Sequence record: HM035025
Reading direction: 5' to 3' (one strand)
Origin: Shigella phage Shfl2
Length of the DNA stretch: 64,000 nt
Each line of letters begins with the position of its first letter. Position 1 is the stretch's first letter. Under the pieces are notes generated by a model. That model saw only the letters and a program-made list of their open reading frames with translations. It did not search any database and was not told where the DNA came from. Positions 4,881 through 21,087 of the stretch are shown here, piece after piece. The position numbers were made by a program, and so were the translations under genes.

Positions 4881-5300
4881 TTATTCCTTAAAGTGTGCTT
4901 TCAACATCTGATACAAGGACCATGCCTGTTCATTATTTTCAATAGTAACTTTCATGACCGGGAATTCTGTGAAATCTTCTATTTGTTCTTGCTCTTCCTG
5001 CTTTTGCTCTTCAGATGCCTGGTATGGATTTTCTACTTCATCAAAGAACTCAGCTTCGTTAGTAGAAAGCCAGATAAAGTTTTCATCAAGGATATCACCA
5101 TGTTTTGCATATCCAATTGTGCCAGTAAATGACATAATTTTAGTAGGACGACCAAGATGGTCAGCATCTAAAATTTTAAAAGGATGCATACCTAAACGGC
5201 GTGCATAGATTCCGTTATCAGTATGGTCTTTAATAAAAGCTTCTTGAGCTTGTTTATTTTTAAATTGATACCATTTATTAACTTCAAATCTAATAGCCAT
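4881..5300 (-). CDS. hypothetical protein (position and size compatible with T4 goF)
   Basis: 139 aa; acidic Q/E-rich tail; assignment by synteny only. Confidence 0.45.
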
Positions 5301-6462: not shown

Positions 6463-6963
6463 CTAGCTTACACGAACATTAATCACTGCGCTGCGAGGAA
6501 CTACAGAGTATTCTCCAGCATGAACTACATTAAGAAGTTCAACGCCATCTTCAATCCATTGGTCAGTTACCCAACCGCCGACCGGATTCGCAAATGGACG
6601 ACGAATGTAAACCGCCTTACACAACAAATCAGTCGGGTCTTCAATTTTTTCAACTGGTGCCACATACATAGAAACTAAATCCATATCAATATGGGATTTT
6701 TCCTCTTCTTTTTCAATTTCTGTCAATAGACTAAAATCTTTTTCATAAATAATAAGCGATGACACCATTCCATAATAGTTTCTAATTTCAATATACATCA
6801 TGCCGATAAGAATTCCGCTATTAACACTAATAACAGTAAAAGGATATCCGCCGGTTAAAGCAAGAAGTTCACAAAACTTATTATGAGCTGTATTAGATAG
6901 TACCGGAAAATTCTTAATTTCATCAAATTTTTTCAATTGATAAACAGCATTATTTTTAATCAT
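6463..6963 (-). CDS. hypothetical protein, C-terminal domain paralogous to motB-like ORF
   Basis: 166 aa; ...WVTDQWIEDGVELLNVVHAGEYSVVP vs ...YITDQWVEDGVKLYNVVFLGTYKVIP in 5896..6387. Confidence 0.45.
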   Translation of the reverse strand: MIKNNAVYQLKKFDEIKNFPVLSNTAHNKFCELLALTGGYPFTVISVNSGILIGMMYIEIRNYYGMVSSLIIYEKDFSLLTEIEKEEEKSHIDMDLVSMYVAPVEKIEDPTDLLCKAVYIRRPFANPVGGWVTDQWIEDGVELLNVVHAGEYSVVPRSAVINVRVS

Positions 6964-10586: not shown

Positions 10587-11333
10587 TTATCCTCGGATAA
10601 GTTTAAAAATTGAACAATTTAGCGGGTATCCTCTTTTCAGTTTAAGTTTATCAATAAAAGACAAGTTTTGATACCGCTCTACACCTTGAATAATTTTATC
10701 ACACATATCATATTGCATTTCTGCTTCTGACAACTTTTTCACAGTTTTCCAATCCGAGCCTTTAAGAAGAACGTTCAATTTAACAACTTCAGCGCCTTCT
10801 GCTATACGAGAACCATCAATACGAGCTTTGAGTGCTATAATCGTTAGCTTAACGTCAGAAGTTTGTTTTGATTTAGAAAGCTGAGAAATGTGCTCAATTC
10901 GGTTTTCACGTTTTTTCTGTATAGCTTTAATTTGATTATAAGTCTTTTTGATTTTAGCCCATTTCTTTTCATCTAAATTTAGTTTATGAACTTTTTTCGC
11001 AGATGAACGACCAATTCGCAAAGCAAATAAATCACGCTTTTCAATCAACTCTTCTAAAGTATAATCAGACCGAAATGTATTATACTTTTTCTTTACTGCA
11101 ATAACATTCCCTTTAATATATCCAACGTTATTATCAAAACGTTCTAATGATAATTTCTCTCCTTCAATACGATTATCAAAAGGTTCTCCTGAGTAAGCGC
11201 AAACTTTCTGATCTAAAATGTTCTTAATGTAATTGAAGTCTAAGTTAAAATCTTTAGAACGTCTTTTGGCAGATGCCTGAGTATGCTCTAGACGACGTTT
11301 AATTTTACGAATTTGATTATTAGACAGTTTCAT
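10587..11333 (-). CDS. hypothetical basic protein (size and position compatible with T4 srd)
   Basis: 248 aa; lysine/arginine-rich; synteny between dda and modA. Confidence 0.4.
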   Translation of the reverse strand: MKLSNNQIRKIKRRLEHTQASAKRRSKDFNLDFNYIKNILDQKVCAYSGEPFDNRIEGEKLSLERFDNNVGYIKGNVIAVKKKYNTFRSDYTLEELIEKRDLFALRIGRSSAKKVHKLNLDEKKWAKIKKTYNQIKAIQKKRENRIEHISQLSKSKQTSDVKLTIIALKARIDGSRIAEGAEVVKLNVLLKGSDWKTVKKLSEAEMQYDMCDKIIQGVERYQNLSFIDKLKLKRGYPLNCSIFKLIRG

Positions 11334-11449
11334 ATTTTTCTCACGGACGGGTTAACTACTTATACTATAACATTTTTACTTCAGCTTGTAAACAACTTTA
11401 TGAAAAATGCTTTAAAACTTTCATGGTATAATGAATCTAAGTCCTTCCA

Positions 11450-12052
11450 TTATAGATTAAATCCTTCAAAATCAAGAGTATAGATAGTGTATGTTGAATA
11501 CTTTTTATACTCGTATCTATCCGCAATTCTAAATACACTTCCAGCTGGTATCATTACTTCTTGTTCATCTGAAACTAATTCCATATTACGATAGCGATGG
11601 CTATCCGGAAATTTAAAACTCGGGCTATATTCTTTACAACGTAAAGCTTTTATAGCATACTCCTGGAAATTAAACACCATAGGAGCTTTGAATTCAAAAA
11701 TAACTTGTGTGTTGTATTCTAATCCAGAAGCAAAATGTAGAGCTATATTTTTATCATATGAAGCTGATACTACTTTATCAAATGTAATAATATCAATTCC
11801 TTGATTTAACACCTGCTTAGTCTCAACTGGAACACCTCTCCAAAGAGGTTTATCGTTTGGTTCCAAACGAGATTTGATTATTTCATTTAACCAAGAATGA
11901 TCGTCTGGCTTATTAGTAATACAATGAATTAAAAGTTCAATTTCGGATAAATTAAATCCTTCAGAAAGTAATTCTTCACGAATAGAAGCACGCACCGATG
12001 CATCCATTGATTTGATTTTAAAATCTTTTAATTGCATTGCTGAATATTTCAT
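11450..12052 (-). CDS. modA: ADP-ribosyltransferase ModA
   Basis: 200 aa; R...STS...E-x-E style ART motifs (RGV, SASYD, EQEVMIPAGS). Confidence 0.8.
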   Translation of the reverse strand: MKYSAMQLKDFKIKSMDASVRASIREELLSEGFNLSEIELLIHCITNKPDDHSWLNEIIKSRLEPNDKPLWRGVPVETKQVLNQGIDIITFDKVVSASYDKNIALHFASGLEYNTQVIFEFKAPMVFNFQEYAIKALRCKEYSPSFKFPDSHRYRNMELVSDEQEVMIPAGSVFRIADRYEYKKYSTYTIYTLDFEGFNL

Positions 12053-16127: not shown

Positions 16128-16328
16128 ATGGTACAAAAATTAATGGCACTTGTTAATGCCATCAAAGGTAATAAAAAACGTATAGCTTTTACTATTTCTG
16201 CTATGGTAGGAATTTTACTCTGGAACTTTATTTTATCACCTGTTGCAATTGCACATGGTATTAATATTCCAGTAGTTACTCTTGATACATTTGTAGATTT
16301 AGCATTTGCTTTAGTTGGGTTAATTTAA
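16128..16328 (+). CDS. plus-strand small two-helix membrane protein
   Basis: 66 aa; AAGGAGG SD 4 nt before ATG; two hydrophobic segments; lies where no minus-strand ORF exists between 56 and 61. Confidence 0.4.
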   Translation: MVQKLMALVNAIKGNKKRIAFTISAMVGILLWNFILSPVAIAHGINIPVVTLDTFVDLAFALVGLI

Positions 16329-17353
16329 ATCTTAGCATATTTAGATAGCCGCATTTTAGCCATTAACCCCTGCGCAATATTATTTTTCATATATTCCATA
16401 ATCTGTTCAGGGGTTGCACCTTCCTTTCTAATCATATCATTGACATCTTTTGATTTCCAGGGAGATTTATCCCAAAACATAACCCTTTCTCCTGCATCAA
16501 CTAATTTAGTCATTCGCTTGATAGTGTCAGGGTGACGAGGTTCATTATCTAAGACCCACACTCGTCTATCTTTAAATGGAACAACTTCTAGGTCTAATTG
16601 ACCACCCGTAATAGCTATACCATTTTCAATAAAAAGCGAATCTATAGGTCCTTCTAGAACATATACATCACCATCTTTAACTCGTTCAACACCGTAAATT
16701 TTTGTTGCCTCAGGATAAGCTTTGATGGTGATATACTTTTGTGGAGCATCTTTCTTTAATGCACGTCCTTGAAAAGACTCAGCTTTTCCATTTGCATTAT
16801 AAATTGGAATAACAAGACGAGGCTCAGAAATTTCCTTTTTGTATGTTCCCGGTGCTATGCTATTAACTAATTTAGGCCATTCGGTTGTAAACCAAAGATA
16901 TTTCCATTTATCCTTTGGAATACAACGAGCTTTTACATATTTTATAATTGGATGGTCTTCCGCCAGTTTATCTAATCTAACACATGACGGAAGAGATTTA
17001 ATTATTTTCTTCTCAGGTTGTTTAGGAAGTTCTTTAGGTTTTTCTACTGGACGACTTTTACCTTTTTCTTTTCTTATTTCAAAGATATACTCACGATATA
17101 AATCAGGTTCAAACTCCTTTAAATATATTCCGATTGGTGCGTGATAGTTACAGTTATAACAATGAATATTTCCTTCATTATTATCACCATAATACCATCC
17201 ACGGGCTTTATTTTGGTCGGTTTTTGAATCTCCACAAACAGGACATCTAAACCGCAATTTAAAAGTTGAACTATTATTTACTTGTGTGAATTTAGGTAAA
17301 TGAGCTAATGCACGATATGCAAACTCATTATCAATCCAAGGTATTGATGACAT
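16325..17353 (-). CDS. 61: DNA primase
   Basis: 342 aa; zinc ribbon CPVCGDS...CYNC and TOPRIM-like C-terminal region; size matches T4 gp61. Confidence 0.92.
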   Translation of the reverse strand: MSSIPWIDNEFAYRALAHLPKFTQVNNSSTFKLRFRCPVCGDSKTDQNKARGWYYGDNNEGNIHCYNCNYHAPIGIYLKEFEPDLYREYIFEIRKEKGKSRPVEKPKELPKQPEKKIIKSLPSCVRLDKLAEDHPIIKYVKARCIPKDKWKYLWFTTEWPKLVNSIAPGTYKKEISEPRLVIPIYNANGKAESFQGRALKKDAPQKYITIKAYPEATKIYGVERVKDGDVYVLEGPIDSLFIENGIAITGGQLDLEVVPFKDRRVWVLDNEPRHPDTIKRMTKLVDAGERVMFWDKSPWKSKDVNDMIRKEGATPEQIMEYMKNNIAQGLMAKMRLSKYAKI

Positions 17354-17521: not shown

Positions 17522-17878
17522 TTAACCTCTATTCATAAAAGCATTAAAAATTTGGTCATCAATTGATGGAACAGCAACCTTTTCTACATCATTTAACAAA
17601 TCATTAATTTCATCAGATAGCATAACGCATGTACCTTTATTTCCTGTAATTGTTACTGCGCAATTACGAACGTTTTCTTTATCAAATTTTAGGTTAATAT
17701 TTTCGTAGTGAAAATCCTTTAATGCCGAATATATTTTTAAAATGAAATTGTCTTTTACTACAATAAAACCGACTTCACTATTAAAACGCGGCTCATGAAA
17801 ACTGTAATAAACCTTTTCATCTATAAAATCGTATGAAATTTTTTCCATTTTTAAATATGAAAATTCAGAACTATACAT
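17522..17878 (-). CDS. hypothetical protein (61.1-like)
   Basis: 118 aa; C-terminus ...SIDDQIFNAFMNRG shared with the next ORF. Confidence 0.45.
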   Translation of the reverse strand: MYSSEFSYLKMEKISYDFIDEKVYYSFHEPRFNSEVGFIVVKDNFILKIYSALKDFHYENINLKFDKENVRNCAVTITGNKGTCVMLSDEINDLLNDVEKVAVPSIDDQIFNAFMNRG

Positions 17879-17879
17879 A

Positions 17880-18506
17880 CTAACCTTTATTCATAAAAGC
17901 ATTAAAAATTTGGTCATCAATAGAAACATTTACTTTAGACTGTTTTTCTGATGGTAATTCATATCCACATATTACAATTTTGTGATCAATATCAAAATAC
18001 ACAGAAGCAATATGATTAATGATGTTTTCAGTAAAGTCTAAATCAACATCAATATCTTTTTGACCACAGCCCAAAGGATAAATAATGCGAGTAATTCGAT
18101 TATCTTTAACAAATATTCCACCGACATACTCTGTGCTGCGTTTAAAGTCTACACGCCGACGAAATGAAAAATATTCAGGCTCTCTATGAGCTCGGCTCAT
18201 AGGACACAACGAGTAACTAGAATAAGAGATGTCAAATCCTACGCCTTCAATATGAGCCAAAGTGTCATGATTAAACCAATTATAATCGTACGCCAAATCC
18301 ATTAGATTATAATATGTAAAAGGCACCGGATTAACATCATTAGTCACAAGCATGTAATTAGCAACTGCTATAATTTCATTGTTTTTAACGAATACAAACC
18401 GTGATTGATGCGAATGACCTGGACCCGCGTTTTCACGATTAATGATATAACACTGGGCACCTTTATATTTGTATGTATCTTTGCACTTGTGCATTTGATA
18501 GAGCAT
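17880..18506 (-). CDS. hypothetical protein (61.2-like)
   Basis: 208 aa; C-terminus ...SIDDQIFNAFMNKG. Confidence 0.45.
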   Translation of the reverse strand: MLYQMHKCKDTYKYKGAQCYIINRENAGPGHSHQSRFVFVKNNEIIAVANYMLVTNDVNPVPFTYYNLMDLAYDYNWFNHDTLAHIEGVGFDISYSSYSLCPMSRAHREPEYFSFRRRVDFKRSTEYVGGIFVKDNRITRIIYPLGCGQKDIDVDLDFTENIINHIASVYFDIDHKIVICGYELPSEKQSKVNVSIDDQIFNAFMNKG

Positions 18507-18799
18507 TATTCACCTACCACTTCAGCGATGATATTTTTATTATTAAAGTTTTTATCACAATACAGAACGTAATTGTATTGCATTACACCACCGGACTTAA
18601 GCTGTTTTTGTACTTCAGCTTTCATTTCAGGACGATCACGCTCAACGATATTCATAATATCCGCTTCAATTTGAGTTTCAACTTCAGTCTGATCTGCAGT
18701 CATAGACCATTCACACAAATCTTTATCATATCCTGCCATAGCAGGCTGAGCAGCACAAAAAGCTAAAGCAAAAATTGCAGCAAAAACAAATTTTTTCAT
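18506..18799 (-). CDS. sp: Spackle periplasmic protein (superinfection exclusion / lysozyme inhibitor)
   Basis: 97 aa; signal peptide MKKFVFAAIFALAFCAAQPAMA followed by GYDKDLCEWSMTADQ..., matching T4 Sp (61.3) as recalled. Confidence 0.82.
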   Translation of the reverse strand: MKKFVFAAIFALAFCAAQPAMAGYDKDLCEWSMTADQTEVETQIEADIMNIVERDRPEMKAEVQKQLKSGGVMQYNYVLYCDKNFNNKNIIAEVVGE

Positions 18800-18856
18800 G
18801 ATAATCTCCTCAGTAGTTTATGTTTATATAGTATCTCAATTTCTAACAAAAGTAAA

Positions 18857-19111
18857 CTATTTTATTTCCTCAAGTTCGTTAATCAATAAAAGTTCTCTGA
18901 CGCTAAAAACAAAGAAAAATGTGTTCCCATCAACCAGAGCATGACCGCTAATAGAACACCCTCTGCGGAATTTAGAAACTTCACAATCTAGAACTGTAAA
19001 GGGTTTTAATCCTATGACTTTAGCTGTGCGTCTATTCAGTTCACAACCACTTGCGAATTTTTCCAAATCTTCTTCTGATTTAAACTGATATTCTCTATTA
19101 ACTAGCATCAT
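18857..19111 (-). CDS. hypothetical protein in the sp-dmd island
   Basis: 84 aa ORF with its own early promoter (gtaaac at 19159-19164). Confidence 0.45.
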   Translation of the reverse strand: MMLVNREYQFKSEEDLEKFASGCELNRRTAKVIGLKPFTVLDCEVSKFRRGCSISGHALVDGNTFFFVFSVRELLLINELEEIK

Positions 19112-19174
19112 TTTCTTTTCTCCGCGATTAGCTGATAGAATTACTATAACACAACTCTATCAGCTTGTAAACTA

Positions 19175-19417
19175 CTATTTTACTAGCATCAATAACTGTT
19201 TCTCTAATTTGACGATTTTACGAAAGTATCTTTTGCATTGGCGAATCTGTCGCTTCGTAGGGCGCACAGCAAACTTAATAAATTCCACTCGACCAAATGG
19301 AGGACTTTCTTCTGCTGGAATATCTAACACCAATTCCCACGTATCTGCAACAAGTGCTTTGAATTGAGTATTTTTCCTGACATTATACGGAGTAGGTTTA
19401 AATAAAACAATATGCAT
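19175..19417 (-). CDS. hypothetical small basic protein (61.4/tifA-like position)
   Basis: Start set at MHIVLFKPTPY (GAGGA SD), 80 aa; immediately downstream of dmd. Confidence 0.45.
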   Translation of the reverse strand: MHIVLFKPTPYNVRKNTQFKALVADTWELVLDIPAEESPPFGRVEFIKFAVRPTKRQIRQCKRYFRKIVKLEKQLLMLVK

Positions 19418-19418
19418 A

Positions 19419-19601
19419 TTATCCTCGACAATCAACTTCACATACTTTCTTGTCATCAATGAAAGCTTTAACTAGCGCTTTATTAACTTCAGCATATTGA
19501 GTAGTAGCCCATTGAACGTCATCTTTCATCATTGTGATTTCTTTAGTAAACATGCTTTCATTCTTAAACCACCCCATAAAAACTACCTTTACCAATTCCA
19601 T
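19419..19601 (-). CDS. dmd: Dmd antitoxin (discriminator of mRNA degradation)
   Basis: 60 aa; MELVKVVFMGWFKNESMFTKEITMMKDDVQW...; size and position of T4 61.5. Confidence 0.78.
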   Translation of the reverse strand: MELVKVVFMGWFKNESMFTKEITMMKDDVQWATTQYAEVNKALVKAFIDDKKVCEVDCRG

Positions 19602-19659
19602 AACAATCTCCTCATTTAACCAACAAGACTACTATACCATAGTCTTGTCGGCTTGTAAA

Positions 19660-21087
19660 CTAAAATTTTAATTCATTCGCTAAAGCATCTAACTGAGCTC
19701 GAGTGGATTCGTTTCTTTGATAGCGATTCTGCTCAGCCTGAATCTGTTGTGAACCTGCTACTTCGTTCACTTCTGTTGGAGTAGAATCTTGTTCAATTTC
19801 TACCCATTTTTGATTTCCTTTTTGAACACCCATCAAAAACTTATTCCACTTATTCTTATCACCATATCGTGATTTGATTTGCTTAATGAGTTGTTGTTCA
19901 GCAGCTGCTAGCTCCTCGGTTTCAATGACCGCAAGCATAAAATCAGCTGTTGCTGGAAGACCAGCAGATTCTGCAATATCGCTCATGTTAACATCGGAAG
20001 AGTCCCAAGCTTGTTTACCGACCTGTGCTGCAGTCCAAAGAACAGTTTCGGTTTCAACAGCAAGAGCACGCAATTCCTCTGCAATAGCTTTAACAGTTGT
20101 GTAACTATTTTCTGAATAAACTCTAATGCGGCAAGATTTACAAATACCCAGATAGTCGACAATAATGATTGTTGGAACAAAATTCTTTTTGAGCTTCAAT
20201 TCGTTTAAAAGTGATCGAAATGTATTAGCATCTGCTCCACCAGTAGGATACTGTTTAACGATTAAACGACCAAGGGTAGATTTCTCACGCCATTTTTCCA
20301 TTTTTCCTTTATACTCAGCGTAAGAAATATGCCCATCATCAATGTCATCAAGAGAAACATCAAGCATATTAGCATCAATACGTTTAGCACAGACTTCTTC
20401 TGCCATTTCCATGGAAATGTAAAGAACATTATGTCCGAGCTGTAAATAATCTGCTGCTAATGAACAAAGTCCTAATGATTTACCAACGTTAACACCAGCC
20501 ATTAAAACGTTCAATGTTCCAGTTTCAGCTCCGCCTTTAGTAATTTTATTTAGAATTTTGAGTCTAAATGGAACCTTACGAGCTTTATTCATATAAGATA
20601 GCCAACGTGCTTCGTAGTCATCCATCCAATCATGACCAACATAGCTATCAAATGAAATTGATAATGCTTGGCGCATGATGTCAGGAATAGCACCAACATC
20701 CGGCATTTTCTTATTTCGTTTTTCTGGAGGAAGCTCAGCATTAGTTTGAATTTCGATTATTTTAGACGTAGCATTAAACATCGCCCTTTGCTGAACATAT
20801 TTTTCTGTTTCTTTTACTAACCAGCTGTGGTCTTCTGGAGAATCAGCCAGTTTTGAAATAAGTGTTTTTACACCAGAATATTCTGTTTCAGTAAATGAAC
20901 TATTTTCTAATGCAACATTTAACGCATTAATAGATGGAACGCTATGGTACTCATTAACATGAGATTTAATTAATTTGAATGTATTTTTAGCTGGACCACT
21001 TTCAAAATATTCTGAATCCATATATGGCCAAACTTTTGAAAAATAAGCTTGATCAAATATAAGATGAGAAAGAATAATTTCTACCAC
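19660..21087 (-). CDS. 41: replicative DNA helicase (DnaB family)
   Basis: 475 aa; Walker A GVNVGKS; size matches T4 gp41. Confidence 0.95.
   Translation of the reverse strand: MVEIILSHLIFDQAYFSKVWPYMDSEYFESGPAKNTFKLIKSHVNEYHSVPSINALNVALENSSFTETEYSGVKTLISKLADSPEDHSWLVKETEKYVQQRAMFNATSKIIEIQTNAELPPEKRNKKMPDVGAIPDIMRQALSISFDSYVGHDWMDDYEARWLSYMNKARKVPFRLKILNKITKGGAETGTLNVLMAGVNVGKSLGLCSLAADYLQLGHNVLYISMEMAEEVCAKRIDANMLDVSLDDIDDGHISYAEYKGKMEKWREKSTLGRLIVKQYPTGGADANTFRSLLNELKLKKNFVPTIIIVDYLGICKSCRIRVYSENSYTTVKAIAEELRALAVETETVLWTAAQVGKQAWDSSDVNMSDIAESAGLPATADFMLAVIETEELAAAEQQLIKQIKSRYGDKNKWNKFLMGVQKGNQKWVEIEQDSTPTEVNEVAGSQQIQAEQNRYQRNESTRAQLDALANELKF

Follow-up and report, generated by a model that had tools for sequence, protein, structure and literature searches.

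A GoF-like small gene on an early-promoter cassette beside tifA in the anti-toxin island of Shigella phage Shfl2

The described systems closest to the locus considered here are the anti-toxin genes of phage T4, the GoF/MotB.1/Frd.2 protein family, and the PeSL cassettes of T4-like phages. The T4 neighbourhood with adfA, dmd, and tifA has been termed an "anti-TA island" (TA, toxin–antitoxin) (Srikant et al., 2022, eLife; PMC9391042). T4 gene 61.4 owes its present name, tifA, to the finding that its product inhibits ToxN, the type III toxin encoded by toxIN, and dmd and tifA are co-transcribed as an early operon (PMC9391042). TifA binds RNA via a Pro-Thr-capped basic helix (K55, R56, and R59), and ToxN is thereby trapped on cellular RNA (Guegler et al., 2023, NAR; PMC10853763); the cap and the three basic residues are required for RNA binding and ToxN neutralisation, and residue 41 tunes potency, F (T4) being weak and S or H stronger (PMC10853763). 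RB69 TifA is active and a more potent inhibitor, also without the T4 tail (PMC9391042). Members of the GoF/MotB.1/Frd.2 family share an N-terminal five-stranded "LSm-like" barrel of SH3 topology combined with variable C-terminal domains, and their nearest relatives in the PDB are FeoA, SloR/IdeR-type regulators, and also Hfq (Kim et al., 2025; PMC12152347). The wild-type function of this family is not established; the only functional lead is the GoF(D25Y) mutant, which stabilises gene 41 mRNA post-transcriptionally, and knock-outs of goF and motB.1 have no laboratory phenotype (PMC12152347). A PeSL is defined by an AT-rich stretch, a sigma70 promoter, a stem-loop between the promoter boxes or over the -10 box, and a Shine-Dalgarno (SD) sequence; in hyperplastic regions, such elements flank accessory open reading frames (ORFs) and serve to exchange them (Arbiol et al., 2010; PMC2839356), and the promoter consensus of the T4 group is TTTACW-N17-TAYWAT (Comeau et al., 2014; PMC4122927). 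Here, we describe the corresponding locus in 64,000 nucleotides of DNA from Shigella phage Shfl2 (record HM035025; hereafter the window), with emphasis on two small ORFs between sp (spackle) and dmd, one of 84 amino acids (ORF84) and one of 80.

The window corresponds to the early region of a T4-like phage (Tequatrovirus), and its nearest records over 1.3 kb, e.g., vB_EcoM-G28 and REP4, are 97–98% identical. A sequence-only reading had placed ORFs of 84 and 80 amino acids between sp and dmd, and this is borne out by the ORF listing and by Pfam anchors for sp and dmd, both ORFs lying on the minus strand. The same reading ascribed anti-toxin functions to this neighbourhood in T4, which agrees with the published roles of adfA, dmd, and tifA (PMC9391042), and supposed a ToxN inhibitor near dmd; such an inhibitor is present, and it is not merely near these ORFs, the 80-amino-acid ORF itself being tifA/61.4. 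Its proposal that one or both ORFs are inhibitors of toxins holds, by orthology, for the 80-amino-acid ORF, and ORF84 stays a candidate. The sp–dmd interval, which in T4 itself contains gene 61.4 alone, is occupied here by two unrelated small early genes. The best explanation of the locus as a whole, to which we assign a probability of roughly 0.5, is that it combines tifA with a selected, GoF-like cassette gene that would act on RNA fate. The interval and its flanking genes are as follows:

18506-18799, minus strand: sp (spackle), Pfam T4_Spackle at 149 bits
18857-19111, minus strand: ORF84, 84 amino acids, ATG start, from the ORF listing
19175-19417, minus strand: 80-amino-acid ORF, ortholog of tifA (T4 gene 61.4)
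19419-19601, minus strand: dmd, antitoxin against RnlA/LsoA, 60 amino acids, Pfam Dmd at 156.9 bits

Two plus-strand ORFs of 48 and 52 amino acids that overlap the interval lacked support and were set aside. ORF84 is absent from T4 and was found by tblastn in 82 phage records, 69 of them at 95% identity or more (RB3, RB5-RB10, ime09, PP01, Shfl2-type phages, and others) and the remaining 13, of the Gaprivervirus SP18 group, at approximately 57%. Over the 1.3-kb region, 501 Tequatrovirus records match and 70 of them span at least 80% of the region, placing the block in approximately 14%. The suggestion that the 84-amino-acid ORF is lineage-specific is thus confirmed; the sequence-only reading would have been void had both ORFs been direct orthologs of T4 genes with no extra gene content, and this applies to the 80-amino-acid ORF, whereas ORF84 is extra relative to T4. 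Further homologs are encoded by an uncultured T4-like lineage (contigs L007, 2179-3483; L008, 2179-3640; and L009; Logan assemblies SRR30535871 and SRR21291449/47). Homologs at 55–81% identity keep the frame, and comparison with the metagenomic homolog of L007 (78% amino acid identity) yields a nonsynonymous divergence (dN) of 0.137 with saturated synonymous divergence (dS); between the homologs of L007 and L008, dN/dS is 0.17. Together with a match to phrog_2980 (E 3e-20), this substitution pattern marks ORF84 as a real protein-coding gene under strong purifying selection. The opposite view, i.e., that the 84-amino-acid ORF is no gene and that the interval comprises regulatory DNA (promoter, terminator) with a chance frame, could appeal to the absence of matches for the protein in Pfam, NCBIfam, and PDB sequence searches and to those depositors who left ORF84 unannotated (in several records, e.g., IME339, EcNP1, and PD112). 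This view is already effectively refuted by a dN/dS of 0.17 or less with saturated dS, the frame kept in the diverged homologs, the correct SD spacing, the significant homology to the GoF domain, and the coherent predicted fold. The intergenic DNA around ORF84 has no match in Rfam. Furthermore, an exhaustive HMMER search of 1.84 billion representatives returned a single true relative (P0006, of the SP18 type); the other matches were zinc-finger repeat proteins aligned on "KPFxCxxCxKxF", which were rejected as spurious, and P0009, a repeat protein with an SH3-repeat-like unit, which is a weak hint only.

Profile comparisons and a structural model identify ORF84 as a single-domain paralog of the N-terminal SH3/LSm-like β-barrel of the GoF/MotB.1/Frd.2 family. 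In pairwise BLASTP, ORF84 is 37% identical to T4 GoF over 41 amino acids (residues 4-44, E 2e-8), and among the 339 ORFs of the window, the GoF of the window is the sole other significant match of the ORF84-family hidden Markov model (E 7e-8). Alignment of the ORF84 and GoF families with hhalign yields a probability of 97% (E 1e-10), and when BLASTP is seeded with a mixed alignment, the matches to many GoF orthologs extend over 93% of ORF84 (28–31% identity). Reciprocally, residues 11-91 of GoF match phrog_2980, the phrog of ORF84 itself. The two proteins share the motifs VNxxYQFK and G(M/L)xPFxxLD and an acidic end, and ORF84 terminates at residue 84, the same point at which the N-terminal domain of GoF ends. 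Homology to the N-terminal domain of the founding members of the family is accompanied by a predicted bent, five-stranded antiparallel β-sheet of the SH3/LSm-like kind with FeoA/DtxR-type neighbours; the two-domain architecture of the family (barrel, linker, and C-terminal domain) is lacking, and ORF84 is a stand-alone domain, a variant architecture of the family. The AlphaFold model used here was computed from a 17-sequence alignment (predicted local distance difference test score, pLDDT, 76.2; predicted template modelling score, pTM, 0.63). Briefly, it comprises a strand, two helices, three strands, a helix, and a strand, and its nearest neighbours in the PDB are FeoA-like SH3 barrels. A Foldseek search of viral models with it returned the SP18-type homolog (E 1.5e-8), T4 MotB.1 (E 7.9e-4), a GoF, and many unnamed Straboviridae proteins of 70–260 amino acids. 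A first model from five close homologs (pLDDT 62.5), which retrieved only the homolog of ORF84 itself from the viral structures, was replaced.

The ORF84 subfamily has a possible metal site of its own: C23, C43, C52, and H57 do not vary among its members, even in the SP18 form at 55% identity, and GoF has none of the four. Two of them, C43 and C52, are placed on neighbouring hairpin strands in the predicted fold, and the nearest folds (FeoA and the SH3 domains of DtxR/IdeR) belong to metal-associated proteins. The position aligned with D25 of GoF is occupied by G22. In RefSeq, ORF84 bears the name "goF mRNA metabolism modulator", derived from phrog_2980. This label is misleading, because the real goF ortholog of the genome sits at 4881-5300 (139 amino acids; phrog_622, E 3e-40), 14 kb away, and the name of ORF84 reflects remote homology only; ORF84 was rejected as a goF ortholog, displaying neither full-length similarity nor a position between gene 39.2 and cef. 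A role as a stand-in for a missing MotB.1 was likewise rejected, since a MotB.1 homolog of 166 amino acids, 66% identical to T4 MotB.1 (119 amino acids), is present at 6463-6963 on the minus strand.

The coexistence of goF and a MotB.1 homolog with ORF84 in one genome raises another explanation, namely that ORF84 is a largely redundant GoF/MotB.1/Frd.2 paralog or a neutral passenger, kept because PeSL-flanked cassettes are easily gained. The cassette is indeed missing from most Tequatroviruses, including T4, T2, and T6, with no obvious consequence, and the lack of a laboratory phenotype in goF and motB.1 knock-outs (PMC12152347) points in the same direction. However, strong purifying selection across lineages with saturated synonymous sites, retention in at least three divergent lineages, and an invariant C23, C43, C52, and H57 of its own, absent from GoF, argue otherwise, and we regard this explanation as unlikely. 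The preferred reading of ORF84 as a selected GoF-like gene includes its residence on a cassette, whose elements are listed here with the adjacent promoters:

19143..19171, minus strand: ORF84 early promoter, TTTACA-17-TATAGT with a TG extended -10 box, scan score 10/12
19130..19165, minus strand: hairpin around the ORF84 -10 box, 14-bp stem, -18 kcal/mol, z -4.2
19120..19123, minus strand: ORF84 SD sequence GGAG, 8 nt before the ATG, read from the sequence
18858..19192, minus strand: replacement block relative to T4, 335 bp here and 38 bp in T4, by alignment of window, T4, and ime09 DNA
19631..19659, minus strand: dmd–tifA early promoter, TTTACA-17-TATAGT with a TG extended -10 box, scan score 10/12
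18824..18857, minus strand: sp promoter region, GTTTAC TTTTGTT...TACTAT, below the scan threshold and assigned by T4 homology

The promoters of ORF84 and dmd tied as the best in the region scan and have a near-identical -35 context. The DNA upstream of ORF84 reads TAGTTTACAAGC-TGATAGAGTTGTG-TTATAGT-AATTCTATCAGC, with the AT-rich AAAATAGTAG just before the promoter. The -10 box is enclosed by the hairpin, and none of 200 shuffled sequences folded as well; the -10 box of the dmd promoter similarly lies in the loop of a 15-bp hairpin (-23 kcal/mol, z -6.1), and the sp promoter has no significant hairpin (z 0.26). No T-run follows the ORF84 hairpin and no intrinsic terminator was called in the region scan, so that a terminator function was not supported; it is possible that the hairpin acts as an attenuator or 3′ stabiliser of dmd–tifA read-through transcripts. 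The sequence-only reading had given each ORF its own promoter or SD, which applies in full to ORF84, having both, and in part to the 80-amino-acid ORF, having an SD only. Promoter, hairpin, and SD are kept upstream of the L007 and L008 homologs, and the stem-loop over the -10 box persists there despite base changes on both arms of the stem.

In the DNA alignment, similarity to T4 ends after codon 75 of tifA and returns at the -35 box of the sp promoter, the replacement block spanning from tifA codon 76 to that box. Both ends of the block read AAAATAG(TAG)TTTAC, i.e., a stop codon fused to a -35 box, and the G of the sp -35 box is the final base of the ORF84 stop codon. ORF84 is accordingly carried by a self-contained cassette (AT stretch, early promoter, hairpin, SD, and ORF) that replaces the 3′ end of tifA and the tifA–sp spacer. 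The strong sigma70-like early promoter with its upstream AT stretch, the stem-loop over the -10 box, and the location at an indel/replacement boundary of a small accessory ORF between close relatives all correspond to the PeSL description, and homologous exchange between early-promoter (PeSL) sequences is the likely route by which the block was acquired. In ime09, PP01, and their relatives, a further cassette with a 60-amino-acid ORF (phrog_37915; 1899-2081 of the ime09 locus L002) lies between sp and the 84-amino-acid gene, inserted at the sp promoter with direct GTTTACTTTTGTT repeats on both sides. At least two distinct cassettes bounded by promoters have thus entered at the sp-promoter site. 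Elsewhere in the window, the motif GTTTACAAGCTGA, common to the dmd and ORF84 promoters, has a third copy at 11381-11393 on the minus strand (three matches compared with 0.29 expected), located in the 116-nt gap between a 248-amino-acid ORF (10587-11333) and a 200-amino-acid ORF (11450-12052), upstream of the former; by length and T4 gene order, these are srd and modA, respectively. The third copy is probably another PeSL-type early promoter.

The other gene of the interval, the 80-amino-acid ORF, is by sequence the ortholog of T4 gp61.4 (TifA), the RNA-binding ToxN inhibitor. The alignment to T4 61.4/tifA proposed by the sequence-only reading gives 96% identity over residues 1-76 (E 8e-56), and the ORF further matches Pfam DUF7279 (PF23945; 71.5 bits, cut-off 24.5) and phrog_2375 (E 3.5e-38). 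Homologs occur in 677 phage records, 499 of which are at least 90% identical. The T4-equivalent ATG at 19417 yields 80 amino acids, and a mechanical TTG start at 19459 yields 94 amino acids overlapping dmd. This ATG lies 1 nt past the dmd stop codon, its SD (GAGGA) being supplied by the final codons of dmd; the region scan found no promoter of its own for tifA, which sits behind the dmd promoter (19659..19631). The gene is co-transcribed and translationally coupled with dmd from an early promoter, and the window Dmd is 100% identical to that of T4 (tblastn). In addition to DUF7279/gp61.4 similarity and predicted dmd-adjacent early expression, the window TifA has the Pro-Thr cap (P53-T54) and the basic C-terminal helix (K55, R56, and R59), as read from the translation, and F41, which predicts a T4-like, weaker natural variant. 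By orthology, the 80-amino-acid protein would inhibit ToxN and bind RNA.

The point of difference from T4 is the tail of TifA: the protein ends in KLEKQLLMLVK (80 amino acids) and that of T4 in KLEKQFVTCDYAEILK (85 amino acids), five residues longer, the tails themselves being QLLMLVK and QFVTCDYAEILK, respectively. The final four residues of the window protein depart from T4 because the recombination junction of the neighbouring cassette falls inside the 3′ end of tifA. Since RB69 TifA is more potent even without the T4 tail, the short tail should be tolerated, and loss of function would not be expected. The tifA half of the interval is already known, and the trimming of the tail by a natural recombination junction is its only novelty.

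Homologs of ORF84 in three other lineages are all located in the island between genes 41 and 61, which in the window also contains the following genes, given with the two that bound it:

16325-17353, minus strand: gene 61, primase
Between gene 61 and the 118-amino-acid ORF, minus strand: gene 61.1
17522-17878, minus strand: 118-amino-acid ORF, phrog_4122
17880-18506, minus strand: gene 61.2/adfA
19660-21087, minus strand: gene 41

In Gaprivervirus SP18, the order is gene 41, an 82-amino-acid homolog of ORF84, two ORFs, dmd, sp, two more ORFs, and a TifA-like ORF. In the uncultured T4-like contigs, whose gene 41 is approximately 76% identical in DNA to that of Tequatrovirus, the order is gene 41, a 253-amino-acid ORF, an 83-amino-acid homolog of ORF84, an optional 50-amino-acid ORF, a tifA homolog, and sp. 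The ATG of tifA in L007 lies 1 nt past the stop codon of the ORF84 homolog, and dmd was not found in the L007-L009 loci. The ORF84 homolog is the promoter-proximal partner of tifA in two cases. The tifA homolog beside the GoF-like gene in the uncultured lineage has 44% identity, and the 253-amino-acid ORF has no PHROG match and only a sub-threshold GIY-YIG match (E 3.8e-4). That the gene always lies in the island, and twice beside tifA, is suggestive; as the region is a cassette-exchange hotspot, however, the evidence stays circumstantial.

These gene orders bear on a second explanation, put forward by the sequence-only reading, according to which ORF84 joins AdfA, Dmd, and TifA as a protein dedicated to inhibiting a toxin or defence effector of the host, working by direct stoichiometric binding. 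ORF84 lies inside the anti-TA island, where "other genes ... are attractive anti-toxin candidates" (Srikant et al., PMC9391042); it has an immediate-early promoter and the patchy distribution of an accessory gene (approximately 69 of approximately 500 Tequatrovirus records), it encodes a small, acidic, single-domain protein, and in L007-L009 its homolog fills the slot of T4 dmd upstream of tifA, dmd not being found there. We nevertheless consider this explanation rather unlikely. Its specific form, in which ORF84 would be a new counter-defence factor, a minimal GoF-type β-barrel neutralising an RNase-type toxin of the host (or a different abortive-infection effector) either in place of Dmd or in addition to it, is a more doubtful proposition; if true, it would provide the first physiological function for the GoF/MotB.1/Frd.2 family.

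In the preferred reading, ORF84 would be a dispensable accessory factor, produced within the first few minutes after infection, and would act on RNA fate, like GoF(D25Y), by binding RNA or a host RNase, RNA-processing factor, or toxin. By analogy with GoF, an action on RNA fate in this broad sense is a tentative proposal that we place slightly short of even odds, and it fits the steady placement of the gene in an RNase-toxin-directed island between genes 41 and 61. Several points weigh against it. In a reporter assay, wild-type GoF and MotB.1 had little or no clear RNA effect (PMC12152347), so that even the family as a whole lacks an established RNA function, and our literature searches found no paper testing ORF84. 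The structural model is of moderate confidence, given its shallow alignment of 17 sequences, and SH3-like barrels are so common that the fold does not point to a particular ligand. ORF84 is slightly acidic (isoelectric point 5.8, charge -1.4) and TifA is basic (isoelectric point 10.3), and a protein partner of ORF84 is therefore at least as likely as direct RNA binding. Finally, co-location in the island may just reflect a recombination-permissive, hyperplastic region.

The family to which ORF84 belongs was described in 2025, and ORF84, itself uncharacterised, is a single-domain member of it, carried on a known kind of mobile regulatory cassette; it is extra relative to T4 yet already present in approximately 70 public genomes under a misleading name. 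It provides a compact, naturally variable member of a phage family without an established wild-type function, and it sits in the only region of T4 in which each of three adjacent small genes (adfA, dmd, and tifA) neutralises a TA defence; it is a reasonable candidate for anti-defence screening, although the findings would not surprise a T4 specialist. Nearly identical natural phages with and without the cassette exist (RB3, ime09, or PP01 compared with T4), and the anti-defence hypothesis is therefore cheap to test. Should that idea fail, the locus is still a clear case of PeSL-mediated cassette exchange in Tequatrovirus.

Among the neighbouring genes, the 118-amino-acid ORF at 17522-17878 is homologous to the C-terminal half of AdfA/gp61.2 (Pfam AdfA, 34 bits, profile positions 113-211), and the two proteins have a common terminal tail, SIDDQIFNAFMN(R/K)G. 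This ORF is missing from T4; ime09 has only the short form, without full-length adfA, and the window has both side by side. It may be a second, truncated anti-DarT-like paralog. In record PV390659.2 (phage vB_EcoM_P8; L003), the tifA ortholog is mislabelled "DNA polymerase", with a start overlapping dmd, and gene 61.1 is mislabelled "major capsid domain-containing protein".

Compared with the known systems, the window TifA agrees with T4 TifA in its position after dmd, its early operon, the Pro-Thr helix cap, K55/R56/R59, and F41, and differs in length (80 compared with 85 amino acids) and in its end (LLMLVK instead of FVTCDYAEILK). With the T4 GoF (ComC-alpha) family, ORF84 shares alignment to the N-terminal domain along its whole length, including the motifs and the acidic end, the predicted five-stranded barrel with two helices after strand 1, the PDB neighbours FeoA and the DtxR/IdeR SH3-like domain, and the status of an early gene. 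By contrast, GoF has 141 amino acids and ORF84 only 84, with neither linker nor C-terminal domain; ORF84 has a conserved Cys3-His set of its own and G22 in place of D25; and goF lies next to gene 39, whereas ORF84 lies in the island between genes 41 and 61. The FeoA and DtxR/IdeR C-terminal SH3-like domains (PDB 7r7b, 4o6j, and 6e55) are close known structures for the predicted ORF84 fold. The ORF84 block departs from described PeSL cassettes in that the full promoter and hairpin element is present only on the upstream side of ORF84, the downstream edge being the sp promoter, and in that its left junction falls within tifA itself, in coding and not in intergenic DNA. It otherwise resembles them in each component, i.e., AT stretch, early promoter, stem-loop over the -10 box, SD, and small accessory ORF, and in its location in a hyperplastic region, exactly at an indel/replacement boundary between close relatives.
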